Of a stretch of 64,000 nucleotides of DNA, positions 36,186-53,776 are shown piece after piece. The first letter of the stretch is position 1, and each line of letters begins with the position of its first letter. The notes under the pieces are model-generated. The model worked only from the letters and a program-made list of their open reading frames with translations. It had not been told where the DNA came from and ran no database searches. A program made the translations under genes and the position numbers. Source of the stretch: Candidatus Krumholzibacteriia bacterium (GTDB lineage Bacteria > Krumholzibacteriota > Krumholzibacteriia > Krumholzibacteriales > Krumholzibacteriaceae); the NCBI GenBank assembly GCA_963836185.1, contig CAWIIQ010000002.1, positions 1-64,000 on the forward strand, given 5' to 3'.

Positions 36186-36389
36186 CTGTAAGGAACCGGT
36201 CTTGCATGTAAACTGGATGTTACAGTCCGGGCCGGGAAAGGGATCCGGCTCTGAAAGCCTAAATCCGGGCTAACGAGAGTAAAAACAAATAGATACGCCG
36301 ATGTTGGTCCCCGGGGAACAACGGGGAACGATGAGGAATTATGCAACACGGGCTTGTGCTTTGCCACACCGGGTAAAACAGGGATGGAT

Positions 36390-37370
36390 ATGATGAAGGA
36401 ACTGACTATCAAATGTGTCGACGCTTTCACCAACAGGTCGTTTTCCGGCAACCCGGCGGGGATAATAATGGGCGCCGACAGCCTGTCCACAGAAGTGATG
36501 CAGTCCATAGCGAGCCAGATGTATCTCAACATCATCGAATGCGGATTCGTGATGGAGTCGAAGGACAGCGACACGGCGTGCCGCATCAGGTATTTCACGC
36601 CGAGACGCGAGATGGCGTGCAGCGGCCATGTGACGATAGCGGCATGCTACTCGATGATCGAGGACTGGAGTATCCCTCTTTCTGACGGAGTGACGGATGT
36701 CACATTCGAGACAGGTATGGGCAAGGTGAAGGTCGATATACACGCAAACTCGAGCGGCAGTAACGTGACAGATCTGAGTTGTCTCGAAAGAATCATGATG
36801 CACCAGCCATTCCAGCGATATCGCGAGGCCGACATCCCTGTCGATGAGATAGCGGATGTATTATGCATAGACCGCAGCGAGATTACGATGACCGGCCTTC
36901 CCGTTGTGATCGCGTCGGCAGATGTCGACTGGCTGCTTATCCCGATAAACAGCAAGGAAACGATCTCGAACCTTCAGCCCGACCTAATAAAGCTCGGGAT
37001 GTTCAACAAGAAATACAACACATTCACAAATCACATCTTTACTCTCGATACTTTCAGCGAGGAATGCATCTCGTACGCGAGGCATTTCGGCCCCGCGATG
37101 GGCCTATGGGAGGATCCCGCGACAGCGATGTCGTCGGGGGGACTCGGGGAGTACCTGATGAAGTACGGGGTTACGAGATCGGGCTCGATGATAATGGAGC
37201 AGGGAAGCGACATCGATCGCCTCGCCAGGATATTTGTCGAGATCGAGCCGGACAATAGCGGTATTAATAAGGTTAAGATAGGGGGTACTGCTACAACCTC
37301 TATCGTCAGGAAGCTGCAGATCGACGGTAACGCCCTAGAGATAGTCGACGAGCCCGTGACTGTCTCCTGA
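36390..37370 (+). CDS. PhzF-family isomerase/epimerase
   Basis: VDAFT..FSGNPAG, RIRYFTP..E...GH, ARHFGP..G..EDPAT, MEQG. Confidence 0.85.
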   Translation: MMKELTIKCVDAFTNRSFSGNPAGIIMGADSLSTEVMQSIASQMYLNIIECGFVMESKDSDTACRIRYFTPRREMACSGHVTIAACYSMIEDWSIPLSDGVTDVTFETGMGKVKVDIHANSSGSNVTDLSCLERIMMHQPFQRYREADIPVDEIADVLCIDRSEITMTGLPVVIASADVDWLLIPINSKETISNLQPDLIKLGMFNKKYNTFTNHIFTLDTFSEECISYARHFGPAMGLWEDPATAMSSGGLGEYLMKYGVTRSGSMIMEQGSDIDRLARIFVEIEPDNSGINKVKIGGTATTSIVRKLQIDGNALEIVDEPVTVS

Positions 37371-38521: not shown

Positions 38522-38558
38522 TTATGGCGGGTGGAAGTAACATATGGATGGAGCGATC

Positions 38559-39032
38559 ATGAATAAGATTAGAAGAAATATCAGAGGATTCACTCTCACA
38601 GAGCTGATGATCGCCATAACGATCCTCGGGCTCATCGCGGTGCTGTCAGTTCCTAACTACCAGCGGTTCATGATGGGGTGGAGGCTCAACGGAGAGACGC
38701 AGCAGCTTGCCAGCGCTCTCAGGACGGCCCGTTCATCGGCTGTTATGAAGAACATCGATGTCGTTTTCACCTTCGATCCTGATGCCAACACGTACTCATG
38801 GTTCGAGGATATGAACAGGAACGGCAATCTGGACAACGGCGAATACGAGAGTGCAGAATTCGAGCTCACAGATACGGTGGAGATCGCCGCACATACTCTC
38901 TCGAGCACTGTCCTGACCTTCGGAAGCAAGGGCAATACGAGAGAGAGCGGTTCGATAACGTTGCGAAATCCGCTGAACAATGTAAGAAGCGTAAGGATCT
39001 TCGGCGGGACCGGGAACGTCACCGTCGACTGA
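38559..39032 (+). CDS. FimT/FimU (GspH-like) minor pilin
   Basis: Class III signal RRNIRG|FTLTELMIAITILG; LASALRTARSSAV; TFGSKG...GSITL. Confidence 0.85.
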   Translation: MNKIRRNIRGFTLTELMIAITILGLIAVLSVPNYQRFMMGWRLNGETQQLASALRTARSSAVMKNIDVVFTFDPDANTYSWFEDMNRNGNLDNGEYESAEFELTDTVEIAAHTLSSTVLTFGSKGNTRESGSITLRNPLNNVRSVRIFGGTGNVTVD

Positions 39033-39049
39033 CAAGGGAAGTAAGAACG

Positions 39050-39433
39050 ATGTTGAAGTCAGAAAAAGGCATAGGGCTCATAGAGATCATCATCGCGATG
39101 CTTATATTCGCCATCGGCATAACGGCCGCGATAAGGACGCTGCCGGTCAGCAATACAGCGACGACCCGCTCCAGGAATCTGACGATGTCGACGAATCTTG
39201 CCCAGCAGAAGATCGAGGAGCTTATGGGCACGCCGTTCACCAGCACTGATCTGAATGCGGGAGCCCACGATGATCCGGATAATCCAATAGAACGTATTTA
39301 CACGCGTACCTGGAACGTCACGGACAACGACCCTGTTTCCGACATGAAGACGGTCACCGTAACAGTGACCTACCTGTCGGGCAACAGCGATAACTCGGTG
39401 ACTCTTTCCACGTACCTGACATCCAGACGGTAG
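39050..39433 (+). CDS. PilV-like minor pilin
   Basis: KSEKG|IGLIEIIIAMLIFAIG; LAQQKIEEL; YTRTWNV...KTVTVTVTY. Confidence 0.8.
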   Translation: MLKSEKGIGLIEIIIAMLIFAIGITAAIRTLPVSNTATTRSRNLTMSTNLAQQKIEELMGTPFTSTDLNAGAHDDPDNPIERIYTRTWNVTDNDPVSDMKTVTVTVTYLSGNSDNSVTLSTYLTSRR

Positions 39434-39440
39434 GTTTGCC

Positions 39441-42413
39441 ATGAGAATCTTCAGAAAGAACAGAGATGCAGGGTTCACGCTGATCGAGATCATGATGAGT
39501 ATGATCGTAATGGGATTCGTCCTGATCTCGGTGGCGGGCATATTCGCCCTCTACCAGAAAGGGTCGGCCAAGACACGTGACTACGCCGAGGCACAGCAGA
39601 ACTCAAGGGCTGCGCTCGACTGCATCACTGATCATCTCAGGCAGGCTGGATCGCAGACTGATTATTTCAGGGGGCAGAGGCCTATAGTCCATGCCGGCCC
39701 CTACCAGGTCGCTTTGAACGCCGATATAGACAACGGAAGGACCATCGACGGCCTGGCGCCGTTGGTGGCGATCAATCCGGCTACGGCGCCCAATACGGTC
39801 CCTTCCGGCGGTACTACTATGTACGCGCCCACCTCGATGTTCGACTCGGAGGCGGAGACGATCGTCTTCAGCCTCGACTCGAACGCCGACGGGGTCATAA
39901 ATGCCGGCGACCGTGGTGACGATATCGAGGAGGACGGCGCGAACGACAACCTCTTCGTGATGAAGAAATACACGTACGGATTCGACGGCGCCCGCAACGA
40001 GGTCCGTGACGCGAATATCGCGATAGTCCGCGGGCCGAACCTGCAGGCGACATGGACGATACCTCAGCCGCTCTTCCAGTACTGGTACGATCATGACGAT
40101 AACCCCGCCACCGATAACCGGCTCTGGGGTGACTCCAACGGAAGCGGACAGCTCGAGGACTCGGAATCGCTCGCCGTTACGGCGATGCCGGACAACCTCC
40201 TTGCCCAGATACGCAGGATCAAGGTCACGACGATCTCCGAGTCGGACCGGTACGACAAGAACTACGAGACTAACGGCGGATACCTCGACGTCACGATGAC
40301 TTCAGAGGTCTATGTGAGGAACTCGCAGATCGCGAGCTCGATAATCCGTGGAAAGGTATTCCATGACGCGGACAAGGACGGCAAGATCGACAACGGCGAA
40401 TCGGGTATCCCGAACGTCAAGGTCCGTCTCGCCGGCCAGAACCGCGACGTGATAACCGATAACTTCGGGGTGTTCTACTTCCCGCTGCCGGCTGGAACGT
40501 ATTCGATCCAGGAAGTCGATCCTCCCGGCTACACGTCTACGACGAACAACCTCGTATCGATCACGCTCGCTTCGGGACAGTCACAGGTCGTCAACTTCGG
40601 CGATATCGCTACGGCGCCGTTCGGCGTGATAAACGGGTACATCTTCGAGGACGAGGACAAGGACGGAGTAAAGGGGCTTGGAGAGAAGGGCCTTCCCGGC
40701 GTGCTGATGTCGCTCGATGACGGGTCACAGGTCATGTCGGACAATATGGGTTACTACGCTTTTACCGCCATGCAGGGCGAATATGTCATCGTAGAGACCG
40801 ACCCGGTCGGCTACTCGTCGACGACTTCCAACTCCGCGACCGCGTCTATCGTCGATCAGGACGATACAGTGACGGTGAATTTCGGTGACTTTGCCGGGCC
40901 GACTTCCGGCGTTCTCGAGGGATACGTCTTTATCGATGAGAACGATGACGGGATCAGGAACTCGATGGAAGAGGGTATCCCCAACGTCACCATCACCGTC
41001 TCGAACTACGACTCGACACTGACGAACGCGAGCGGGTACTACCTGTTCAACCTCGAGCCGAACACGTACTCGGTGACCGAGAGGGATCCGACAGGATATA
41101 CATCGACTACTGTGAATACTTATTCAGACATCGTCATCACTGCCGATACTACCGTTGCGCGCAACTTCGGCGATGTGCTCGAAAACCGCCAGGACTTCGT
41201 GGAGATCCACATCTCGAACACCGAGAGGGTGCTGTCCGTGACGACAGGCAACCTCTCCGAGGATAATAACCACGACCAGGATATCGTCCTCGGGACGGCC
41301 CTGGGCGGCGGGATCGGGAACATGCTTGTCTTCTACAATGAATGGGAGAACTCCACGACGCCGGTCCACGAGCTCTTCAATTCTGATCCCGCATACAGGC
41401 GCGACGCGGGGTACAACATCAACGCGATGGTGAGGCTCGACCTCTCCGGCGACGGGGTCCCCGACATCGTGACAGGGCTCGACACAGATACCGAACGGAA
41501 CATCCAGGTCTGGATGACAGAGGATGAGGGTGTCCTCACTACCTCGCCAGTCTACTCTTTCACTTCCGACGGCTCGAATGAAGCGATGGACCTGAAGCTC
41601 GTCGATCTCGACGACGATGGCCGCGAGGATCTCGTCGTGGGGCTCAAGTCGCCCTTCGGATCGGTCGGAGGCTTCCAGGTATTCAGGGGGATGGGTAACG
41701 GAGACTTCATGCCGATGCAGTATATAATTCAGGCGCTGAGTGAGACCGAGGTGCCCCTTGGCGAGATATGGGCCGTGGAAACGGGCGACATGGATGGAGA
41801 CGGAGACCAGGATATCGTCGTGGGTTCGCACACCTCGCCGTACTATGGATACATCGACATATATGAGAACGTCGGTTACGCCTCAGGTGATTTCAAGTGG
41901 GCCCAGCGCTACCAGGCATGGGGCGCGGTCAACGACCTGAAGGTCCTCGATATGATGGAGGACGACTCAGGCGATGATGACATCGTAGCGGCCCTCACGA
42001 TGGGAAATAACTACGGGCACATCATGCTCTGGCACAACGAGGGCGGGCTGATGGGAATCCCCGATACGACGGGTTATTCCTTCGGCTCCGAGGTGCAGGC
42101 TACGCTGCCCGACGACTGGCTGTACGCCGATGGCGAAGCGCTCTGCCTCGCTGTTCTTCATCTCAATAACGACGTGTTCCCCGACCTGGCGTACGGGACG
42201 AGGGATTCTGATGTGTATACCGGCAATGTCTACGTACTTGCCGCTTACGGAACGCTTCCGGCGTACGGCGACCAGATCAACCAGACCGTGTCTGGAGAGG
42301 TCGTATCACTCGCCGTCGCTGATTTCAACAAGGATGTCAGACCGGACATAGTCGTGGGTACCAGGTCCACGGCTACCCAGGGAAGGCTTGTAGCCTATTT
42401 CGGCAGGGACTAA
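39441..42413 (+). CDS. Giant PilW-like minor pilin (990 aa) with three SdrD-B-like repeats and a C-terminal FG-GAP beta-propeller
   Basis: RDAG|FTLIEIMMSM; AQQNSRAALD...LRQAG; three GxVFxDxDxDG..D..ExGxPxVxxxL repeats from ~40341; seven DxxxDGxxDIVxG-type motifs from ~41240. Confidence 0.85.
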   Translation: MRIFRKNRDAGFTLIEIMMSMIVMGFVLISVAGIFALYQKGSAKTRDYAEAQQNSRAALDCITDHLRQAGSQTDYFRGQRPIVHAGPYQVALNADIDNGRTIDGLAPLVAINPATAPNTVPSGGTTMYAPTSMFDSEAETIVFSLDSNADGVINAGDRGDDIEEDGANDNLFVMKKYTYGFDGARNEVRDANIAIVRGPNLQATWTIPQPLFQYWYDHDDNPATDNRLWGDSNGSGQLEDSESLAVTAMPDNLLAQIRRIKVTTISESDRYDKNYETNGGYLDVTMTSEVYVRNSQIASSIIRGKVFHDADKDGKIDNGESGIPNVKVRLAGQNRDVITDNFGVFYFPLPAGTYSIQEVDPPGYTSTTNNLVSITLASGQSQVVNFGDIATAPFGVINGYIFEDEDKDGVKGLGEKGLPGVLMSLDDGSQVMSDNMGYYAFTAMQGEYVIVETDPVGYSSTTSNSATASIVDQDDTVTVNFGDFAGPTSGVLEGYVFIDENDDGIRNSMEEGIPNVTITVSNYDSTLTNASGYYLFNLEPNTYSVTERDPTGYTSTTVNTYSDIVITADTTVARNFGDVLENRQDFVEIHISNTERVLSVTTGNLSEDNNHDQDIVLGTALGGGIGNMLVFYNEWENSTTPVHELFNSDPAYRRDAGYNINAMVRLDLSGDGVPDIVTGLDTDTERNIQVWMTEDEGVLTTSPVYSFTSDGSNEAMDLKLVDLDDDGREDLVVGLKSPFGSVGGFQVFRGMGNGDFMPMQYIIQALSETEVPLGEIWAVETGDMDGDGDQDIVVGSHTSPYYGYIDIYENVGYASGDFKWAQRYQAWGAVNDLKVLDMMEDDSGDDDIVAALTMGNNYGHIMLWHNEGGLMGIPDTTGYSFGSEVQATLPDDWLYADGEALCLAVLHLNNDVFPDLAYGTRDSDVYTGNVYVLAAYGTLPAYGDQINQTVSGEVVSLAVADFNKDVRPDIVVGTRSTATQGRLVAYFGRD

Positions 42414-42451
42414 TCATCCCGCCTGGAGGGACAGGAAAGGACTGAATAGAA

Positions 42452-43714
42452 ATGAACGGCAAGATCAACGGAAAGCTGAAGGCGGAAAGCGGGAACGTCC
42501 TCGTGGTGACGCTGCTCGTCCTGTTCGCCATATCGGTGATAGGAGCGACGCTGGCGATGGTCTCCTCGATGGACCTGAAGATATCGGGTAACCAGAGAAC
42601 GACCACCCAGTCGCTGTTCATCGCCGAGGCGGGGCTGAACGAGGCGATCCACAGGCTGTCGCTGCCCAACCCGACAGATGTCGCCATCGGCGGCTGGACG
42701 GGAAACGTCGCGATCGGCGACACCGAGCCGTACGATCCGAACTGGAAGACGTACGTGTACCTTACGGCGCCGGGATCGGCTCCGACGCTCGGCGGGAGTA
42801 ATATCTCGACCGGGACACTCCAGGATCCTAACGGAGATTATCTCGGGTACAGCCAGACGACTGGCACCGATGGTGTCCTGGTCGTCGAGCACAAGTGGGA
42901 GGACCTCGATGGTGACGGGGCGAGGGACGTAAACGAGATCGTCCGGTACGATCCGATGAAGATCCCCCCGGAGAACTTTTCGTCGGGATTCCCCGTTGAA
43001 CTGATAACCGTGACTGGTGAATCGGCCAACGGTGAAAGGGTCATCCAGGCAGAGGTGACGAAGAGGACGATGATAGCCCGGACGCTCGGCGCGCTGTATG
43101 TCGACAAAGCGGTCAAGCTGACCGGTAACTGCGCCTTCTGCGGACACAACCATGACCTGGCCACTCCGCCGGGCACCCAGCCAAATGCATGCAAGGCATG
43201 GCATCTGCCTACGGGAAACCTGCCGGGAGTGACTAGTACCGGTGACGTCGTCAAGACGCAGGGATCGGCCGATATTCTCGGCGATCCACAGCCTATCGAC
43301 GATGACGCGGGCAACCCGTTTTATTCGCTTGCCGAGGTGCTCGGGCTCTCCGATTCCGAGGTGGCCAGCATCCTCGCCAAGGCGGATAACACCTCGATGG
43401 TAGATCCGCTCAACGGCATCACCTACATACAGGGTGACGCCAAGATCACGAGCAACCTGACCGGCAAGGGCCTGATCTATGTCACGGGCGACCTGCAGGC
43501 GGCGGGAAGCTTCCATTTCCAGGGCCTGATCTACGTCGAGGGGGATGTCCACTTTACAGGTACGCCGTGGGTCCTCGGCTCGATGATCGTGCGCGGGACC
43601 TCCGACTTCAACTTCTCCTCCGGTAACGCGGGCGTACTCTACAGCAAGGACGCTATCTCACAGGCGCTGAGCGGCATGATGCCGTGCATAGTACTCTCGT
43701 GGAGGGAGATGTAG
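42452..43714 (+). CDS. PilX-like minor pilin with extended C-terminal beta-solenoid
   Basis: ESG|NVLVVTLLVL without Glu5, as in PilX; SLFIAEAGLNEA; repeated GLIYVxGD. Confidence 0.8.
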   Translation: MNGKINGKLKAESGNVLVVTLLVLFAISVIGATLAMVSSMDLKISGNQRTTTQSLFIAEAGLNEAIHRLSLPNPTDVAIGGWTGNVAIGDTEPYDPNWKTYVYLTAPGSAPTLGGSNISTGTLQDPNGDYLGYSQTTGTDGVLVVEHKWEDLDGDGARDVNEIVRYDPMKIPPENFSSGFPVELITVTGESANGERVIQAEVTKRTMIARTLGALYVDKAVKLTGNCAFCGHNHDLATPPGTQPNACKAWHLPTGNLPGVTSTGDVVKTQGSADILGDPQPIDDDAGNPFYSLAEVLGLSDSEVASILAKADNTSMVDPLNGITYIQGDAKITSNLTGKGLIYVTGDLQAAGSFHFQGLIYVEGDVHFTGTPWVLGSMIVRGTSDFNFSSGNAGVLYSKDAISQALSGMMPCIVLSWREM

Positions 43715-43754: not shown

Positions 43755-43784
43755 AGCCCGCTGCCGGATATCCGGCAGCGGGCT
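43755..43784. terminator. Perfect 30-bp palindrome, bidirectional terminator between convergent operons
   Basis: AGCCCGCTGCCGGATATCCGGCAGCGGGCT followed by TTCTT on the plus strand. Confidence 0.75.
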
Positions 43785-43808: not shown

Positions 43809-44396
43809 TTATTTGCCCTTGCGCCATCTGCTTGGAAAGGAACCGAACATCTTCGGCGAAGAGTCGGGGAAAGCTCCCTCGCTCACTGCCCTGACGTTCT
43901 CCACCGTGTAGAAGGCGCCAGGATTGTGTCTTTCGATAATAGCCAGTACTGCCGGAAGCGATGATCTCCTGACCACCGTATATACTACGCACACCTTTCC
44001 TTCCGCCCCCTCGGCCGGTACGTTTGTGACGCCGTAATTCTCTTCTCTCAGGGCCTGCCTGAGAGCCAGGGCGTCTTTTCGAGTAATGATCCTGACGAGG
44101 TAGGTGCCGATGGCGAGCTTCTCCTCTATGATCAGACCTATATATGTGCCCGCCGCGAATCCGCCGCCGTATGCGAGGTAGCAAAGTGGATTTGACAGGT
44201 TCTTGATGATCTGGCTTATCGCCAGCAACCAGATCAGGACCTCGAAGAAGCCGAGTGCCGGCGCGATGATCTTGTGCCCCCTCGAGACGAACACGATCCG
44301 GATCGTCTGGATCGATACGTCCAGTATGCGGGCAACGAAGATCATCAGCGGCAGCGCCGCCCAGCGAAACAGCTCCGAATCTAGGAATTCAGTCAT
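43809..44396 (-). CDS. DUF5698/DUF2179 (YebE-like) membrane protein
   Basis: IFVARILDVSIQTIRI, GFFEVLIW, YGGGFAAG, GVT...EG, P.AFYTV. Confidence 0.85.
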   Translation of the reverse strand: MTEFLDSELFRWAALPLMIFVARILDVSIQTIRIVFVSRGHKIIAPALGFFEVLIWLLAISQIIKNLSNPLCYLAYGGGFAAGTYIGLIIEEKLAIGTYLVRIITRKDALALRQALREENYGVTNVPAEGAEGKVCVVYTVVRRSSLPAVLAIIERHNPGAFYTVENVRAVSEGAFPDSSPKMFGSFPSRWRKGK

Positions 44397-44463
44397 CTTT
44401 TCATCTCACCTTGAGTTGTTGTAATAATTTCTGCCGGTCCTGGCGCCCGGGCCTTATAACCGG

Positions 44464-45531
44464 TCAGAAGACCGGATCGAATCCGAGCCCCGGCTTTCCC
44501 GTGGTATGGAGCACTCCGTCCTTAAGTATCACTGCGCCGTCGGAAGGGTCGCCGATGAGGTCGAAGTGACCATCCAGGTCGGCATAAAGGACGTTGGGCC
44601 TGGCCAGCGCGAAATGAAGTCCGGCGGCTATCGCCAGGGCCGACTCGTCCATGCATCCGACCATTACCTCCAGCCCGGCCGATCTGGCCACGGCATTGAC
44701 CTGCAGGGCCTCGAATATTCCACCCACCTTCATGAGCTTGATATTGACCATGTCGACCAGCTCGCGCCTCGCGAGCCGGAATGCGTCCCGAAGATTCATG
44801 AGGCTCTCGTCCGCCATGATCGGGATAGGTACGTCGGTCGTCACCCGGCCGAGCATGTCGGGATGCCCCTTCGGTGTCGGCTGCTCGATAAGTTCGATTT
44901 TCGCCGCTTTCGTTCCCTTGAAGAATCTGAGCGATTCATCGACGGTGTACCCCTGGTTGGCGTCAAACCTGATCTCTATCCTGGCGCCGACAGCCTCCCT
45001 GACCTTTGACACCCTTTCGATGTCGAGATCGACGTCCTTTCCCCCTTTGATCTTGAGGCATTTGAATCCATCGGCGATGAATCCGGCTGCTCTCTCGACA
45101 GTCTCCCCGGTGGAAAGTATGCCGATCGTGATGCTTGTCTTCATGTGTTCGCGGAATCCGCCGAGCAGTTTGTAGAGAGGGATGCCGGCAGCCTTTCCCA
45201 GGATATCGTGAAGAGCCATGTCGACCATGCACATCGCTGAGGGATGATCCTTAAGGTCCGGCAGCATCCTGAAAAGGATCTTCGATATGCGCAGCGGGTC
45301 GACTCCCTTCATGGCGGGACGGATGACCCGATCGCAGACCTCAAGAACACTCTCGGCTGTCTCCCCGGTGACTTCACTGTCGGGAGCGGCGCATCCGAAT
45401 CCCTTTATCCCGGTGCTGGTATTGACCATCAGGAAGACGTTCTCCGCCGTGTCAATCTTCTCGTACGCTATCTCGTACGGCTCGGAAAGCCGCATCGTCA
45501 CGCACTGCCATTCAACATCAGTGATGCGCAC
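44464..45531 (-). CDS. Enolase-superfamily dipeptide epimerase (L-Ala-D/L-Glu epimerase or DgcA-like)
   Basis: KIK, DANQG, EQP, ADES, NIKLMKVGG, GCMDES, DLDG (DxD). Confidence 0.9.
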   Translation of the reverse strand: MRITDVEWQCVTMRLSEPYEIAYEKIDTAENVFLMVNTSTGIKGFGCAAPDSEVTGETAESVLEVCDRVIRPAMKGVDPLRISKILFRMLPDLKDHPSAMCMVDMALHDILGKAAGIPLYKLLGGFREHMKTSITIGILSTGETVERAAGFIADGFKCLKIKGGKDVDLDIERVSKVREAVGARIEIRFDANQGYTVDESLRFFKGTKAAKIELIEQPTPKGHPDMLGRVTTDVPIPIMADESLMNLRDAFRLARRELVDMVNIKLMKVGGIFEALQVNAVARSAGLEVMVGCMDESALAIAAGLHFALARPNVLYADLDGHFDLIGDPSDGAVILKDGVLHTTGKPGLGFDPVF

Positions 45532-45539
45532 TTTTAGCC

Positions 45540-47867
45540 TCAGTACTTTCTCTGGTAGATCTCATCGAGTGTCATGTTCTTCAGGTCCTCCACCAGCGCT
45601 ACGAGATGGGCGATCATGATCTTCCAGAACTTCTCACCCTTCTCGGCAGTCGCTTTAGTGGGATCACCGAGCACTCCGCTCCTGGATATCTTTTCGGTGT
45701 GGACGTACCAGGCGACCCCCCTCTTGGATGTGAAATTCAGGTAGCGGCTCGAGAACTGCGGGACTGCCTTGACGGCCTTCCCGAACCTTACCAGGTGGGG
45801 CCTGACAGCCAGTGATGTGCTTGTCTCGATCTCGCCGGCGTGAATGTCATTCGGCGTCTCGACGAGGCGATAAAGGTCTACATCGCTTGTCTCGCCTGTG
45901 TCGACGCATACGAAGATCTTCGTGTCGCGGGTAAGCATCTGGGCCGCGTAGTTCAGGGCGGGATTGTTGCCGCCGTGGCCGTTGATGATCACTAGCTTCT
46001 TTATCCCGTTCCTCGCGACGCTCATCCCTATGTCGTAGATCAGTTTCGAGAGGGTGTCGTTCCCGATCCCGACCGTGCCGGCAAAATCGTCATGTTCGTA
46101 GGAGACGCCATACGGGACCAGGGGCAGCACGAGCGGCCTGGGTTCGCTGCATGCCTCAGCGATCCGACGAGCGAGATAACCGGCGTCGAACGCGTCGCTG
46201 TCGAGAGGAAGATGGGGGCCGTGTTGCTCGATCGAACCTACTGGCAGAAGCGCTATGTCGACCTGCCCGAAACGCTTTTTCGCCTCCGGCCAGGTCATCT
46301 CGCCCCAGAGATAGTCGCTGGGCTCGGCGTCCAGGGCTTCGATGGCGATATTGTCTGATCCCGGAAGGTCGAACTCGAACGGGTACGGATTCATCAGCGA
46401 TGAATCGTCCAGTACATCGAACTCCTCCCATTTTCTTCCCGAGTACCGCAGCGCCCCCTCGGCATGTTGAAGCAGGATCCTGTACAGGTCCTCACGCAGG
46501 TCCAGGGGAATGCTCTCGACAGGAGAGAGACGTGGATGGAACCTGAGTTTCATTATCTCCGGGGACGGCCGGAGTTTCTTCGCCTCTCCGGGAGGCAGAT
46601 CGATCAGTCCCCGGCCGGATAGCAGATATGCCATATGGCGCTGTCCGCCTGCTTCCTGGTTATCGCCCTTCTTTACGATGTCGGCCAGGCATTTCGCCGT
46701 CTGCTCCGCGGTATAACCACAGACGGAGGGGTCGATGTCAAAAGCCGACAGCATCCCTACGATCCTCCGGCACTTCTCGCATCGCCCGCACGGCCTGAAA
46801 CTGTCTCCATCCTTGTGAGCGGCATGACACGATATCTGATGCTTCTGGTAACGCGGATATCTCTCCGCGAGCGTTTTCTCGATCAGGATCTCGGCCATCG
46901 GCCTTAGGATCGAGAACTGGCAGATGGACCAGCCTTTTCTCATGAAGTATCTCGACATGGCGTTGTCGAAATATATGCTCTGGTCGTAATACCCGTTGTA
47001 ATGCGTGATGCCTTTGGTCGAAGTCTTCTGGGTCGTGTCGTACTCGTCGCCTATCACTATCCTGCCGATGCCGCGGGAGATTGTGACAGGAAGGACGCCG
47101 AAGAGAAAGATGGCCACCGTCCACAGCCGCAGAGGGTACTGGTCGGCTCTCAATGTGGCGAAATCCTGCCTGATGAAGGGGAAATGCCTCAACATCCAAG
47201 CGAAGACACGGTCGGAGTTTACCCAGACTCTGGACGTGTCCGGAACATTATCCTTGAAGAACCTGTACGCGTTCAGAGCGGTGAACCAGTGACGGCCCGA
47301 TTCGTTTACGAATACCGGATGGACATCCCTGCCCATCTCTTCCAGAAGCCCGAAGGTCAGAAGGCTGTCCTTTCCTCCGCTTGAAAGGATAGCGTGGCTG
47401 TCCTTGTGAGACGGCCTGAGGCTCCATGACGGTGGCCGCGACGGGGTAGACGGCCCCTCGAACACCAGTTTTGCCGCGCAGTACGTCTTCTTCTTGACCG
47501 GCTTCAGCCCGACGGCGGCGCCGGTCAGGAAAGGGTTGGGCTCGAGGAGTTTCTTGACGTAGATCTCCCTGCAGGTATTCTCGGTCATATCCCTTATGAA
47601 ACGGGTGTCGGTCTCATCGTATTCTCCCTTGAATACGATCTTGCCGCAGAAGAGCCCGTAGTTCATCGCTACCTGCGCGGCCATCAGGGAGGCGAGGTTG
47701 CGCGAGACCGGATCATCCGGATCGAAGACGTCCTCCTCGAAGCGGTAGATAAAGTCGATACTGTCCTCTTTGCCGCCGTAGAAGACGCGGTAAGGAGCTG
47801 TCAGCTTCCGCTTTTCGAGCCTGACCGGGCCGACTTCGAGCCGGTCGATAGTGACAAGGCCTTTCAC
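45540..47867 (-). CDS. Fusion of an N-terminal PP-loop adenylating domain (MurL/QueC-like) and a C-terminal creatininase-family amidohydrolase
   Basis: SSGGKDS PP-loop, FSILRP..E, ISCH...CGRCEKC; then GSIEQHGPHLPLDSD, NGHGGN, HAGEIETS, GVLGDP. Confidence 0.85.
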   Translation of the reverse strand: MKGLVTIDRLEVGPVRLEKRKLTAPYRVFYGGKEDSIDFIYRFEEDVFDPDDPVSRNLASLMAAQVAMNYGLFCGKIVFKGEYDETDTRFIRDMTENTCREIYVKKLLEPNPFLTGAAVGLKPVKKKTYCAAKLVFEGPSTPSRPPSWSLRPSHKDSHAILSSGGKDSLLTFGLLEEMGRDVHPVFVNESGRHWFTALNAYRFFKDNVPDTSRVWVNSDRVFAWMLRHFPFIRQDFATLRADQYPLRLWTVAIFLFGVLPVTISRGIGRIVIGDEYDTTQKTSTKGITHYNGYYDQSIYFDNAMSRYFMRKGWSICQFSILRPMAEILIEKTLAERYPRYQKHQISCHAAHKDGDSFRPCGRCEKCRRIVGMLSAFDIDPSVCGYTAEQTAKCLADIVKKGDNQEAGGQRHMAYLLSGRGLIDLPPGEAKKLRPSPEIMKLRFHPRLSPVESIPLDLREDLYRILLQHAEGALRYSGRKWEEFDVLDDSSLMNPYPFEFDLPGSDNIAIEALDAEPSDYLWGEMTWPEAKKRFGQVDIALLPVGSIEQHGPHLPLDSDAFDAGYLARRIAEACSEPRPLVLPLVPYGVSYEHDDFAGTVGIGNDTLSKLIYDIGMSVARNGIKKLVIINGHGGNNPALNYAAQMLTRDTKIFVCVDTGETSDVDLYRLVETPNDIHAGEIETSTSLAVRPHLVRFGKAVKAVPQFSSRYLNFTSKRGVAWYVHTEKISRSGVLGDPTKATAEKGEKFWKIMIAHLVALVEDLKNMTLDEIYQRKY

Positions 47868-48967
47868 TTCTTCTTCACCTCACGTTTCGGATCGTCTATC
47901 CATGGGCGTATCGCAGCGGCGAGATCCGCCGCGCCGTCCCTGAGCACATCAAACGCGGGAATCCCGGTTTCCTTGCGGATATTCTCGCAGGAGGCGGTGA
48001 TATCTTCATCGCCGAGCCCCTCATGGTTGACCGTTACGGCCAGGACAGGCCTTCCGGAGACCGTCTCGATAGCTCTTATCTGATGCTCGAGAGGCTGGAT
48101 CGGGTAGCCGGGGAACCCGTCATACTCCTTTCGAGCCGGAGCGTGCTGCAGGATCACGACCTCCGGCCTGCCGGCGGCAAGGATCTCGAATCCACCGGGA
48201 TAGGCGGGATTCATCAGGCTTCCCTGTCCCTCGATCACGATCATATCAGGTTTCGCGTCTTTCCATGCCGACCACACAGCATGCTCTATCTCACCGGTCA
48301 CAAAATCATTGATAAGCGAGTCGAGCATGATCGAATATTTCGCCCCCTGCATCCAGGCGGTCTGTCCCGTACCTACCATCTCTACATGATATCCTTCCGT
48401 CCTGAGCGCCTGGACCAGGATCCACGCTGTCGTTCGCTTGCCGATGGCTGAATCCGTGCCGAGAACGGCCACCTTAAGGCACTTGACCTCTTCGATCTTT
48501 CCGCTGAAGAAATGGAGCTTCTCGCGCGGCGGCGTTTTGCGCACGTCCGTGATCCTGACCCCGTTCTTTTTCGCGGCCGCAGCCAGTTCCACGTCTTCAG
48601 AAAGGAAATCGTGCAGTCCGCAATCGACATTGAGCCCTGTCTCGAGGGCGCGCAGGACATCCTCGCGCGCGGAAGGCTCGAGCCTTCCTCCGTCCGGAGC
48701 AATACCGATGACCAGATGAGTAGCAGCCCGCCCCGTGTCCCTGGCGGCAGCGACCGCCTCAGCGATACTCCCGTATACGGATATGCCGCTGCTCCTGCCG
48801 TCGAGCACCTCCCCGGCGTCTTTTCCAGCATGTTTCGAATCGATCACCGAGAGCACGCTGTACCTTTGAGTGAAACGTACCAGCCCGTGCGCCGTCTTTC
48901 CGTTTGGAGTGTTGAAGGCTCCTTCGCAGTATACTATCGCGTTGCCCTCCAGTTTCGACGACATCAT
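47864..48967 (-). CDS. DUF1611 (DgcN-like) P-loop protein
   Basis: GKTAHGLVR, GIAPDGG, GLHDFL, GTDSAIGKRTT, GTGQT, IEGQGSL..PAY. Confidence 0.9.
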   Translation of the reverse strand: MMSSKLEGNAIVYCEGAFNTPNGKTAHGLVRFTQRYSVLSVIDSKHAGKDAGEVLDGRSSGISVYGSIAEAVAAARDTGRAATHLVIGIAPDGGRLEPSAREDVLRALETGLNVDCGLHDFLSEDVELAAAAKKNGVRITDVRKTPPREKLHFFSGKIEEVKCLKVAVLGTDSAIGKRTTAWILVQALRTEGYHVEMVGTGQTAWMQGAKYSIMLDSLINDFVTGEIEHAVWSAWKDAKPDMIVIEGQGSLMNPAYPGGFEILAAGRPEVVILQHAPARKEYDGFPGYPIQPLEHQIRAIETVSGRPVLAVTVNHEGLGDEDITASCENIRKETGIPAFDVLRDGAADLAAAIRPWIDDPKREVKKK

Positions 48968-50097
48968 TTCCTCCCGGTCATTATGACGACATACCTGTCG
49001 CCTGCCAGAGCTTCTTTCTTGTGCCTGTCAGCGAGAGCGATCAGCCCCGCGGTGGAAGCGGGGAGGACGCTGAGCCCTTCGCGTTCCCGTATCATTCTGG
49101 CGAACATCGTCATGCTCCTGTCAGACGCGTCGGCGGCCCAGCCGCCGGTTTCCCTGATGGCATCGAGCGCGAGGTCGCCGTCTATCGAGCGCCAGTTGAT
49201 GAGCGGTTCGTTGACCGACGTTTCTTTTATCCTCAGCGGTTCCAGGTCTTCACACCGGTCGAGGTTCTTGCGGAAGGCCTGGACGATCGGATTCTTTCTA
49301 AAGGACGATCCTGCTATCATATGCGGCATGCGGGATGTTTTTCCCCTGCGGTAGAGGCTAAGAAAACCCTTGTATATTCCAGCGAACGTCGTTCCGTTCG
49401 AGACAGGCACGGCCACCGCCGCGGGGGCGTCCCGCAGCTCGTCGTAGATCTCCCACGCTATCTGGCCGTACGCCTTGAGCTGAAGGGTCGTATTGTCCCC
49501 TCCCGGATTCGCATCGTAGATCTCCTCGCGGGCCGCGAACTCCCCCGACACCTCGACAGCGCGCTCGTAATCGCCCGGCACCCTTCTGATCTCGGCACCC
49601 GCCTTCTCGATTTCCGATACCCGCTTTGTATGATAAGTCTCGGGGATGAAGACGACACATTTTATACCCGCGAACGAGGCCGCCAGGGCCATGGCCACCC
49701 CGTAGTTCCCGCAGGTGGCTATCGTTATGGCGTCGAACCCCCTGCGCATGGCATCCATCGACTGCGCGAAGGCTATCCTGTCCTTCTGTGTACCGCTGGG
49801 ATTGCCTCCCTCGAACTTCATGAATATCTGTCTGAATCCTATTTCCTTCTCGAGGTTCCTGGCCCTGACAAGGACTGTGTCTCCGACCTCGGAATCCATG
49901 ATATCCTCATACGCCTCAAGCCTCTCCTCGAGGCTGTACCCTGCGTCGGCAGCGACCGCGCGAAGCTTCTCGGCGTTCTCGAGCAGTTCCGTTATCTGCC
50001 CGGTCGCCCCGTCGATCAGTGTATAGGGAAGCACTATGACGTCACGTCCGGCATCATTCTCGCGGACTTCCTTTTCTTCTTCTCGTTCCTCGCTCAT
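48964..50097 (-). CDS. Threonine-synthase-like fold-type II PLP enzyme
   Basis: GDT.L, KFEGGNPSGTQKDR (PLP Lys), TCGNYG, PVSNGT, EG...PAS, TG. Confidence 0.85.
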   Translation of the reverse strand: MSEEREEEKEVRENDAGRDVIVLPYTLIDGATGQITELLENAEKLRAVAADAGYSLEERLEAYEDIMDSEVGDTVLVRARNLEKEIGFRQIFMKFEGGNPSGTQKDRIAFAQSMDAMRRGFDAITIATCGNYGVAMALAASFAGIKCVVFIPETYHTKRVSEIEKAGAEIRRVPGDYERAVEVSGEFAAREEIYDANPGGDNTTLQLKAYGQIAWEIYDELRDAPAAVAVPVSNGTTFAGIYKGFLSLYRRGKTSRMPHMIAGSSFRKNPIVQAFRKNLDRCEDLEPLRIKETSVNEPLINWRSIDGDLALDAIRETGGWAADASDRSMTMFARMIREREGLSVLPASTAGLIALADRHKKEALAGDRYVVIMTGRK

Positions 50098-50335: not shown

Positions 50336-51511
50336 ATGTATAAAAAACTTACCTCGATGGCGATTGCCGTTATTATGATAATTCTTGTCCAGGGCATGAA
50401 TATCCAGGGAGCGGATGCGAAGATGAGTTCGAAGAATAATAAAGAGAACAGGGCCGAGGCGACCTTCGCGGGCGGGTGCTTCTGGTGCACCGAGGCAGAT
50501 TTCGAGAAACTGCCCGGTGTGATCGAGGCTGTTTCAGGTTATACCGGGGGGCACGTCGAAGATCCTACGTATAAAGAGGTCTGTTCGGGGACTACCGGCC
50601 ATACCGAGGCGGTCTTAGTCCGGTTCGATCCGTCGAAGGTCAGCTACGCCGAGCTGCTCAAGTATTTCTGGAAGCACATCGATCCGGTCGATGCAGGGGG
50701 GCAGTTCGTCGACCGCGGTTCCCAGTACCGCAGCGCGATCTTCTATCACGGCGACGAACAGAAGCACCTCGCCGAACTGTCGAAGGAGGCGCTCGAGAAG
50801 TCCGGCGTGTTCGACAGGGCGGTAGCCACCGAGATCACGGCGGCCTCGAAGTTCTACTCCGCCGAGGACTACCACCAGGGCTACTTCCAGACCTGTCCAG
50901 TGCAGTACGGTGCGTACAGGGCAGGCTCGGGAAGGGACGGTTTCCTCGAGGGGGCCTGGACTGCGGAATCGGCGGCGAAGTTCGATGCTGAGTTCGACAG
51001 GAGGCTCAAGGAGGCAGGCGGGAGTGGTTATAGTGCAGACGGCGAGAGCGAACATAGGGGGGCAGGCGGGAGTGACTACTCGAAGCCGGATGAATCATCC
51101 CTTAAGGCCGCCCTCACTCCGGAGCAGTACAGGGTCACCCAGCAGTGCGGCACTGAGCCTCCATTTCAGAACGAGTTCTGGGACAACAAGCGAGAGGGGA
51201 TCTATGTCGACGTCGTGAGCGGTGAGCCCCTTTTCAGCTCGAACTCGAAGTATGCGTCCGGTTCGGGCTGGCCGAGCTTCTATCAGCCGCTGGAACCTGA
51301 GAACATAGTCGAGAAGAAGGACAACACCCACGGAATGACGCGCGTCGAGGTACGGAGCGCGGACGGCGACTCCCATCTCGGGCATGTCTTCCCTGACGGC
51401 CCGGAGCCTACGGGACTTCGATACTGCATCAACTCGGCATCGCTGAGGTTCATCCCGAAAGAGGACATGGAGAAGGAAGGGTACGGGAATTACCTGAAGC
51501 TCTTCGAGTAA
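50336..51511 (+). CDS. msrAB: Exported bifunctional peptide-methionine sulfoxide reductase MsrA/MsrB
   Basis: Signal peptide; AGGCFWC, GYTGG, QYRSAIF, AEDYHQ; GTEPPF, GWPSF, HLGHVF.DGP..TG.RYCINSA. Confidence 0.95.
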
Positions 51512-52711: not shown

Positions 52712-53776
52712 ATGCCAGGGCTTGTGAGAAACAGAAGCAGGAAGGTCGGCCTCCCGCCTGGTACCGTCGTCTACAGCGGCGAGGTGCGGAAGCGGGATAT
52801 CGGTATAACCGTATTCGATTACGACGAGGACCATGTCGACGAGAAATCCGTCAGCAGCATCGATGAGGTCCTGGCGTTTCGTGACAGCAAGGCCGTTACC
52901 TGGATCAACGTCGACGGCATCCACGACACATCGATAATAGAGAGCCTCGGGGACCATTTCGGGATCCACCCCCTTGTACAGGAGGATATCGTAAGCGTCG
53001 GTCAGCGGCCCAAGTTCGAGGATTTCGACGACTACTTTTTCATCGTGCTGAAAATGTTGTCATACGACGACAAGAAGGATGAAATAGAATCGGAACAGGT
53101 CAGTTTTATCGTGGGGAATAATTACGTCATCTCATTTCAGGAACATGTGGGGGATGTGCTCGACCCAGTAAGAAACCGGATCAGGCAGAGAAAGGGACGT
53201 ATCGCCAGAATGGGGCCGGACTATCTGGCTTACGCCCTGATCGACATCATCATAGATAATTACTACTCGATCCTCGAGAAGATCGGAGACAGGATCGAGA
53301 GCATGGAGGAGGACCTCCTCGGGAATCCCTCGATCGATACCCTGCACTCGATACAGAGATCGAAGAGGGATATGATCTACCTGCGTAAATCGATATGGCC
53401 CCTGAGGGAGGCTATCAACGGGCTGGAACGCTGTGAATCAAAGCTGATCAGCAAACAGACAAGGATCTTCCTGCGGGATGTCTACGACCATACCATTCAG
53501 GTAATCGATACGGTGGAGTCGCTCAGGGACATGGTGTCCGGCATGCTCGATATGTATATGTCGAGCGCGAGCAACAGGATGAACGAGGTGATGAAGGTAC
53601 TGACGATCATAGCGACCATATTCATACCGCTGACATTCATCGCGGGCATCTACGGGATGAACTTCGAATTCATGCCTGAGCTTTCTGTCCGGTGGGCCTA
53701 TCCTGCCGTGTTGGGAGTGATGGGTGTCGTTGGGCTCGCCATGCTGATGTATTTCAAGAAAAAAAACTGGTTCTGA
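52712..53776 (+). CDS. corA: Magnesium/cobalt transporter CorA
   Basis: GLPPGT, HPLVQEDI...QRPK, MNEVMKVLT...IAGIYGMNF..MPEL. Confidence 0.95.
   Translation: MPGLVRNRSRKVGLPPGTVVYSGEVRKRDIGITVFDYDEDHVDEKSVSSIDEVLAFRDSKAVTWINVDGIHDTSIIESLGDHFGIHPLVQEDIVSVGQRPKFEDFDDYFFIVLKMLSYDDKKDEIESEQVSFIVGNNYVISFQEHVGDVLDPVRNRIRQRKGRIARMGPDYLAYALIDIIIDNYYSILEKIGDRIESMEEDLLGNPSIDTLHSIQRSKRDMIYLRKSIWPLREAINGLERCESKLISKQTRIFLRDVYDHTIQVIDTVESLRDMVSGMLDMYMSSASNRMNEVMKVLTIIATIFIPLTFIAGIYGMNFEFMPELSVRWAYPAVLGVMGVVGLAMLMYFKKKNWF

Follow-up and report, generated by a model that had tools for sequence, protein, structure and literature searches.

A conserved four-gene cassette, predicted to serve metabolism of a D-amino acid, in mostly uncultured bacteria and in archaeal-type loci

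What does a bacterium make when it encodes, in a single operon, a pyridoxal phosphate (PLP) enzyme, a DUF1611 protein, a PP-loop::creatininase fusion and a dipeptide epimerase? The question is raised by a stretch of 64,000 nucleotides (nt; here called the window) from a Candidatus Krumholzibacteriia bacterium (assembly GCA_963836185.1, contig CAWIIQ010000002.1, positions 1 to 64,000), in which these genes and a fifth, for a DUF2179 membrane protein, lie together on the minus strand. We find that the first four form a cassette that is real, widespread, undescribed in the literature searched and built of known superfamilies. Every part has characterized relatives; it is the combination that is undescribed as far as we searched. 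The literature search found no account of the cassette, with most subscription papers outside its reach, and the main text of a survey of the QueC family makes no mention of MurL, creatininase, epimerase or DUF1611. Reading catalytic and specificity residues against characterized relatives, we tentatively favor the view that the operon builds and recycles a small N-acylated D-amino acid or dipeptide whose side chain is basic.

The conserved unit is a four-gene operon

All five open reading frames (ORFs) are intact. In order of transcription, they encode a fold-type II PLP enzyme of the PRK06381 subfamily with a threonine-synthase-like fold (48964..50097; 377 amino acids [aa]), a DUF1611 protein with Rossmann-like and P-loop parts (47864..48967; 367 aa), the fusion (45540..47867; 775 aa), an enolase-superfamily dipeptide epimerase (44464..45531; 355 aa) and a DUF5698+DUF2179 membrane protein (43809..44396; 195 aa). 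The PLP enzyme and DUF1611 genes overlap by 4 nt at an ATGA (48964-48967), as do the DUF1611 and fusion genes at a GTGA (47864-47867); the epimerase gene follows the fusion after 8 nt and the DUF2179 gene follows the epimerase after 67 nt. Pfam and NCBIfam models assign PALP/PRK06381 to the first product, N- and C-terminal DUF1611 domains to the second, creatininase behind 505 unmodeled residues to the third, MR_MLE to the fourth and DUF5698+DUF2179 (PRK04164.1-2) to the fifth. Catalytic motifs are present and conserved in the cassette enzymes. The orientation, overlaps, 8-nt gap and motifs reported in an earlier, sequence-only reading of this locus are confirmed. The 3.5-Mb host genome has one close copy of each gene. 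A 13-bp G+C-rich hairpin (43755-43784), between the DUF2179 gene and a convergent pilX-like gene, is a candidate bidirectional terminator by consensus match only; a consensus scan found no comparable hairpin between the five genes. A promoter scan returned 3 sites against 2.8 expected, none of them upstream of the operon.

A GTDB scan with the N-terminal domain of the fusion confirmed at least 551 of 587 stretches, and at least 2938 relatives of this domain were recognized among 7994 candidates scored; among the matches listed, 117 of 120 carried the creatininase domain. GTDB locus counts given here refer to the best 80 loci, which are the closest to the query and hence biased to the full cassette form. 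In 54 of these 80, the PLP enzyme, DUF1611, fusion and epimerase genes follow in that order on one strand. Contig ends interrupt the cassette in a further 13, and the remaining 13 are truly incomplete nearby (7 without DUF1611 and epimerase, 2 without the creatininase domain and 4 others). Locus titles name Desulfobacterales, Ignavibacteria, Gemmatimonadota, Zixiibacteriota, Aminicenantes, Latescibacterota, Krumholzibacteriales, Calditrichaceae, Bacteroidales and Acidobacteria; cultured Desulfosarcina strains (L004, L055 and L064) have the full cassette.

As an unselected check, 151 genomes of the host phylum were each searched with every cassette part, a sample in which relatives are non-independent and assemblies incomplete. 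PRK06381 was found in 32 genomes, the PP-loop domain in 31, the close epimerase in 32, DUF1611 in 72 and the DUF2179 family in 33. At least one of the PLP enzyme, PP-loop domain and close epimerase occurs in 34 genomes, 29 of which have all four genes, and none of the three occurs in the other 117. The distribution is patchy: besides the host, one of five genomes of the same genus has the cassette. Linkage of the cassette is far above chance, and the conserved unit is four genes that recur across many mostly uncultured bacterial phyla. Conservation mapping, which the sequence-only reading had suggested as a check on a five-gene cassette, thus upheld a four-gene core whose order is kept across phyla, and the fifth gene dropped out of it.

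That fifth gene, for the DUF2179 protein, is accessory and probably cotranscribed here. It was considered as a core gene and rejected as rare beside the cassette, its family being present in 7 of the 80 GTDB loci. Of the 34 cassette genomes, 5 have it at a distance of ~2 kb or less from the cassette, and 22 of the 33 carriers in the host phylum are without any signature gene. YitT, a different DUF2179-domain membrane protein, is present in another 18 GTDB loci. A DUF2179-domain membrane protein is therefore a recurrent yet optional companion (25 of 80 loci for the two together).

The PLP enzyme is predicted to be a Lys/Cys racemase

The PLP enzyme scores 431 bits with PRK06381 (cut-off, 266), a model that NCBIfam labels "threonine synthase" and on which our literature search found no paper, and 101 bits with the threonine synthase (ThrC) model TIGR00260 (cut-off, 167). 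It shares its fold and catalytic Lys (Lys105) with ThrC but has QKDR for FKxRG, Cys for Thr and no N-S-x-N-x-x-R, a stretch with a phosphate-binding role. Among 108 PLP enzyme sequences, [QH]KDR and CGN[YF]G are present in all and the N-S-x-N-x-x-R stretch in none; as a caveat, the other ThrC-like protein of the host keeps the Arg, likewise without N-S-x-N.

The invariant Cys129, in A-T-C-G-N-Y-G, draws attention to the residue before G-N: serine racemases have Ser at this place, threonine dehydratases have Ala, diaminopropionate ammonia-lyase has Asp and ThrC has Thr. Going by the motif and the residue numbering, we take the Cys position to be that of Ser84 in human serine racemase. Serine and aspartate racemases have the fold and the catalytic Lys in common with the cassette enzyme, and Ser in place of its Cys. 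In serine racemase, Ser84 is the re-face base, and its change to Ala abolishes racemization (PMC6424897). The cassette protein is accordingly best read as a putative Lys/Cys fold-II racemase with Lys105 and Cys129 as its bases, and racemization seems likelier than the beta/gamma elimination or replacement that the sequence-only reading had named for fold-II PLP enzymes.

The fusion joins a MurL/QueC-type domain to a probable amidohydrolase

For the N-terminal 505 aa of the fusion (46353..47867), neither Pfam nor NCBIfam has a family that reaches its cut-off, despite the at least 2938 relatives and 551 GTDB stretches counted above. The domain carries an SSGGKDS loop (47364-47384) and a zinc motif, C-x12-CGxCxKC (46770-46829). 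Motifs were counted in 157 sequences that are free of stops and reach 80% coverage or more. All 157 have the zinc motif, 156 have NESGxHW and 155 have SGGx[DE]S, and the QueC-family motifs YxQxHxxE, VPxRN and YPDC, which Cap9 keeps (PMC13329287), were each present in none.

Two lines of comparison place this domain. In an AlphaFold model of the fusion (mean predicted local distance difference test score [pLDDT], 73; creatininase half poor, with pLDDT below 50 at residues 659-746), the structural matches were creatininases followed by QatC (E 3.5e-6, 462 columns), QueC and Cap9, QatC being the best full-length match of the N domain; a PDB profile search with the N-domain alignment found nothing under E 0.07. 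In the Atlas, the nearest named matches are MurL N- and C-domain clusters (0.96). Alignment with a MurL-like protein gave an HHalign probability of 92.6 and, under relaxed settings, 367 colinear columns at 23% identity, and the reversed MurL-like sequence used as a control was not matched. This comparison protein (L194, G158:C12; 347 bits) occurs in 1 of 121 genomes sampled from another phylum, that of G154, and the ORF after its gene is presumably MurD-like, judging by its motifs.

MurL and the cassette domain have in common the N-terminal subdomain and, in identical order, the GGKDS loop, FSxxRP and SC..CGxCxKC. They differ in that identity is ~23%, the score with the MurL hidden Markov model (HMM) NF041275 is 29.5 bits for a cut-off of 700, and the PP-loop family reaches Thermoplasmatota and is usually fused to a creatininase domain. 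No murD adjoins the cassette, no Mur ligase is among its recurrent neighbors, and the host has MurI. The MurL-like identity suggested by the sequence-only reading therefore survives as distant homology, and a MurL-type role in peptidoglycan synthesis is not supported, given the host MurI and the occurrence of the family in Thermoplasmatota. With QueC, QatC and Cap9 the domain shares the PP-loop and the four-Cys zinc motif, and its overall size is QatC-like; QueC itself (about 220 aa, in a queD/queE context) differs from a 505-aa domain that is without QueC motifs in a host with a separate QueC. No que, qat or cyclic-oligonucleotide-based antiphage signaling system (CBASS) genes lie beside the cassette. 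MurL depends on ATP and Mg; AMP is released, and inversion runs one way, from L to D (PMC5808125). We regard the PP-loop domain as a putative, distant MurL/QueC-type carboxylate-adenylating enzyme, which might act as an epimerase or as a ligase.

The structural resemblance admits a reading in which the cassette, like QatC or Cap9, modifies a protein or RNA and not a free metabolite. QatC is indeed the best full-length match, and a convergent RimI-like GNAT gene adjoins 50 of the 80 archaeal-type loci described below. We nevertheless judge this very unlikely: the motifs kept by Cap9 are absent throughout, the cassette partners are small-molecule amino-acid enzymes, and the neighbors include neither a conserved small partner nor an ATPase, a nuclease or a nucleotidyltransferase; their recurrent clusters hold none of the QatABCD or type IV CBASS partners (ATPase, TatD, QatB and the CBASS nucleotidyltransferase, CD-NTase).

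In the C-terminal domain (45540..46301; Pfam match at residues 523-759), a creatininase-family metal amidohydrolase, the metal set is invariant (E547, H549 and D558 in 77/77 sequences, H631 in 74/74, and H676 and E681 in 72/72); we presume that these residues are the ligands of a binuclear metal center. Creatininase Glu122 is replaced by Gly (66/73) or Asp, and NGHGGN stands where creatininase has NGHYEN. Scores are 107 bits with the creatininase HMM TIGR04448 (cut-off, 235) and 161 with the best NCBIfam match, MftE (cut-off, 172). The domain thus resembles the creatininase/MftE/ArfB family in its intact metal-binding set and differs in the missing Glu122 and in its fusion to a PP-loop domain. 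Because the metal ligands are kept and Glu122 is missing, the domain probably hydrolyzes amides with a specificity unlike that of creatininase.

The substrate that creatininase opens is a cyclic amide, and this bears on another explanation. Here the PLP enzyme would use beta- or gamma-replacement to make a nonstandard amino acid, the PP-loop domain would act as an amide ligase or cyclase and not as an epimerase, and the operon would yield a compatible-solute-like amide or lactam, to be reopened by the fused hydrolase. The ThrC-type fold of the PLP enzyme agrees with such a scheme, as do the YitT/DUF2179 genes and CorA (11 of 80 GTDB loci) near the cassette. So does the fact that the structural neighbors QueC, QatC and Cap9 form amides (PMC13329287). 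We consider the scheme rather unlikely, since it explains neither why the residue at the second-base position is always Cys nor why DUF1611 is paired time and again with a racemase or an epimerase, and since the N-S-x-N-x-x-R stretch of ThrC is missing from the PLP enzyme family.

Could these simply be genes for the ordinary enzymes (ThrC, QueC, creatininase and an Ala-Glu epimerase), adjacent by chance? The PLP enzyme does pass the cut-off of a model named for threonine synthase. The host, however, has a separate QueC and MurI above cut-off and another ThrC-like PALP gene, the signature motifs are absent, and gene order is fixed across phyla; we find coincidence extremely improbable, and the concern raised in the sequence-only reading, that the enzymes might prove to be ordinary ThrC, QueC and creatininase, is largely refuted. 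The host genome also has a homoserine dehydrogenase and a PALP gene that resembles diaminopropionate ammonia-lyase by alignment.

DUF1611 and the epimerase point away from D-glutamate

DUF1611 and an enolase-superfamily epimerase are known together from DgcN-DgcA (NF041892 and NF042940), which form one operon, act on D-Glu and constitute an irreversible, costly route (PMC12363236; see also PMC10845958 and PMC11747546, all citing Yu et al. 2023). The cassette DUF1611 is a distant homolog of DgcN (7XRJ; E 1.4e-31), scoring 155 bits with the DgcN model for a cut-off of 480, and is predicted to be an acyl-CoA-dependent N-acyltransferase. In a quickly built tree with 36 rows, DgcN itself not among them, 25 cassette and archaeal-type DUF1611s fell on one side of a branch with a Shimodaira-Hasegawa-like approximate likelihood ratio test (SH-aLRT) value of 93. 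The nearest DUF1611s outside this clade (L184 and L190) each adjoin an Orr-like PLP racemase gene of the alanine racemase family, and nine more distant rows form a separate group, with an adjacent enolase-family epimerase in 7 of 9 loci. Because Orr-like racemases or enolase-family epimerases adjoin it, DUF1611 can be said to accompany stereo-inverting enzymes of different folds.

The epimerase keeps two catalytic Lys, three Mg ligands and the DxD motif (K160/K162, D190, E216, D241, K265/K268 and D318-x-D320), and falls below cut-off with the DgcA and L-Ala-D/L-Glu epimerase HMMs (158/400, 228/500 and 93/343). Its best PDB match is 3RIT, with which it has GCMDE in common. Specificity of dipeptide epimerases is set by positions 24, 51 and 296 (PMC3965090), and the cassette enzyme has acidic residues there, Glu24, Asp51 and Asp295, with GCxDE in 58 and AYE in 48 of 59 sequences. 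The cassette enzyme shares all catalytic residues and the DxD motif with 3RIT, Bacillus subtilis YkfB and Escherichia coli YcjG, but Arg24 of YkfB and 3RIT is Glu in the cassette, which also has no NlpC/P60 or murein-peptide transport neighbors. Glu-specific enzymes have Arg24, YkfB Arg24 aligns to the cassette Glu24, and epimerases from other contexts retain Arg in the position-24 loop in 7 of 8 cases. Because its specificity positions are acidic, glutamate is an unlikely substrate for the cassette epimerase, and one with a basic side chain is likely.

A DgcN/DgcA pair working on D-Glu, as the sequence-only reading had it, is thus not supported: both proteins fall below cut-off, the pocket of the epimerase is acidic, two or three extra enzymes are present, and the phylum has a separate, more DgcN/DgcA-like pair. 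Two such distant DUF1611-epimerase pairs score 231-246 bits with DgcN and 228-253 with DgcA, still below cut-off, and G079, G065 and G029 each hold a distant-type DUF1611 plus the cassette.

Further DUF1611 loci were seen in passing. More DgcN/DgcA-like proteins, mostly with an epimerase, are encoded at L176-L183, L185, L189 and L191, several of them downstream of pal-, cpoB- and CNNM-like ORFs, a context that suggests an envelope-recycling role for those pairs. A second type of DUF1611 operon, in which DUF1611 is followed by an ornithine-racemase-like gene, was observed at L184:4585-6710 and L190:3705-6519; a further ORF at L190 is VanX-like by eye (no NCBIfam match at 1e-15).

A trimmed cassette occurs in archaeal-type loci

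A profile search with the PP-loop domain gave 613 representatives at E <= 0.001, among them stand-alone forms of 460-520 aa and a DUF1611::PP-loop fusion (P0130). Two of ten distant representatives looked up named Thermoplasmatota proteins, one cluster includes Methylomirabilales, and one Atlas cluster of the family is 67% archaeal. We scanned metagenomes with the archaeal-type subfamily, so labeled from the Thermoplasmatota names and from the neighbors Tsr3 and deoxyhypusine synthase, since the contigs come without taxonomy, and many are near-copies. Of 539 stretches 423 were confirmed, and the counts that follow refer to the best 80. DUF1611 is present in 69 (absent from 1, no room in 10), the PLP enzyme in 48 (absent from 9, no room in 23) and the epimerase in 16 (absent from 38, no room in 26); the creatininase domain is present in none of the 80, 62 of which have room for it. 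An M14 peptidase is encoded in 15 loci, always beside the epimerase, and epimerase plus M14 peptidase form an optional module of archaeal-type loci. Thermoplasmatota have no peptidoglycan, and the hosts of the trimmed cassette are likely wall-less archaea.

The M14 module invites comparison with the E. coli genes ycjG and mpaA, which are neighbors, and, through it, a salvage reading by an extended Dgc-type route: DUF1611 would acetylate a scavenged D-amino acid, the PP-loop enzyme or the epimerase would invert it, and the hydrolase would free the L form, so that sediment microbes could feed on necromass that contains D-amino acids. DgcN-DgcA works in this way for D-Glu (PMC12363236), a D-aminoacyl-tRNA deacylase is encoded in 9 of the 80 archaeal-type loci, and named carriers are often Desulfobacterales and other uncultured lineages. 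Several observations pull in the other direction. The archaeal M14 protein has no detectable similarity to MpaA by BLASTP (E 0.18), no transporter family is fixed among the recurrent neighbors of the cassette, and the deacylase may reflect plain synteny of close relatives. Spending ATP to AMP as well as acetyl-CoA, beside a free racemase and a reversible epimerase, would moreover be a poor bargain for energy-limited anaerobes. We think salvage unlikely on balance.

Side observations on these distant forms include a PP-loop::methyltransferase fusion (P0129) and degenerate PP-loop or zinc motifs in P0154, P0163, P0138, P0187, P0192 and P0230, some of which keep the creatininase fusion and whose PP-loop domains are possibly inactive. 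Four archaeal-type loci without a PLP gene (L105, L110, L112 and L114), close relatives that probably represent one event, have an Orr-like racemase gene ~6 kb upstream.

A proposed route that builds and recycles a D-configured metabolite

The theme of amino-acid stereochemistry with an amidohydrolase, put forward in the sequence-only reading, is supported by the cassette enzymes. The pathway that we tentatively favor would run as follows. The PLP enzyme would racemize a free amino acid by means of Lys105 and Cys129, and DUF1611, in the manner of DgcN, would use acyl-CoA to acylate an amino group. The MurL-like domain would adenylate the carboxylate (ATP to AMP) and then carry out either one-way inversion of the alpha carbon or ligation of an amine. 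The creatininase-like domain, or the M14 peptidase in some archaeal-type loci, would strip the acyl group or cut the amide, and the enolase-family enzyme would re-epimerize the freed dipeptide. N-acylation would separate the substrates of the one-way from those of the two-way inverting enzymes, so that a futile cycle is avoided. The C-terminal residue of the metabolite would be D-configured and probably basic (Lys-, Orn- or Arg-like). A division into a building and a recycling part fits the recurrence of the PP-loop enzyme, DUF1611 and PLP enzyme in bacterial and archaeal-type loci alike, set against a variable hydrolase and epimerase. Peptidoglycan metabolism offers a parallel: the terminal D residue that MurL creates on an acylated peptide is undone by an enolase-family epimerase together with an M14 amidase.

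A number of findings weigh against this proposal. The nearest sequences and folds of the PLP enzyme are threonine synthases (template modeling [TM] score about 0.72, 23-26% identity), and we came upon no earlier example of a fold-II racemase with Lys and Cys as bases. Similarity to MurL is weak, and the solved structural neighbors of the PP-loop domain are amide-forming enzymes. A cationic preference of 3RIT was reportedly described by Lukk et al. in 2012; 3RIT itself has Arg24. An operon with three stereo-inverting enzymes may hold more of them than the pathway needs. Nor do the genes always travel together: the PLP gene is missing nearby in the 9 archaeal-type loci noted above, 7 GTDB loci have the PLP enzyme and fusion without DUF1611 or epimerase, and two genomes with such loci hold merely a 40%-identical DUF1611 elsewhere. 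One genome (G075) has PLP enzyme, DUF1611 and epimerase genes without a PP-loop match, and in G279 and G280 the operon is divided in two, which sits uneasily with a strict single pathway.

A bolder form of the proposal, possible but doubtful, is that two new enzyme types, a Lys/Cys fold-II racemase and a MurL-related ATP-driven epimerase/ligase that works outside peptidoglycan and is tethered to a deacylase, make an undescribed D-amino-acid metabolite common to sediment bacteria and wall-less archaea. If the favored model holds, ATP-driven epimerization would extend beyond peptidoglycan, the PRK06381 "threonine synthases," which look misannotated, would gain a function, and a D-amino-acid route would be indicated for the microbes of sediments, wall-less archaea among them.

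Neighboring genes and minor observations

At L057, a 1026-aa ORF joins half a DUF1611 to the fusion. Polyamine-related genes neighbor some loci: an Orn/DAP/Arg decarboxylase with an arginase family protein at L010, L015, L039 and L054, paired deoxyhypusine synthases at L129, L135, L164 and L169, and an arginine-decarboxylase-like ORF, identified by eye, at L170. These polyamine-type neighbors (decarboxylase plus arginase family in 4/80, deoxyhypusine synthase in 4/80) come from close relatives and are weak hints.

In the window itself, a type IV pilin/pseudopilin cluster (38544-43714, plus strand) converges on the operon and shares the hairpin with it; it encodes a GspH protein with an N-methyl motif, a PilV-like ORF, a 990-aa protein with SdrD_B and FG-GAP repeats and a PilX_N protein. 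A PhzF-family protein is encoded at 36354-37370 on the plus strand, opposite to the cassette and 6.4 kb from it, and is not recurrent in related loci. Divergent from the operon, positions 50336-51511 and 52712-53776 (both plus strand) hold an MsrA-MsrB fusion with an N-terminal signal-like stretch and, nearby, CorA.

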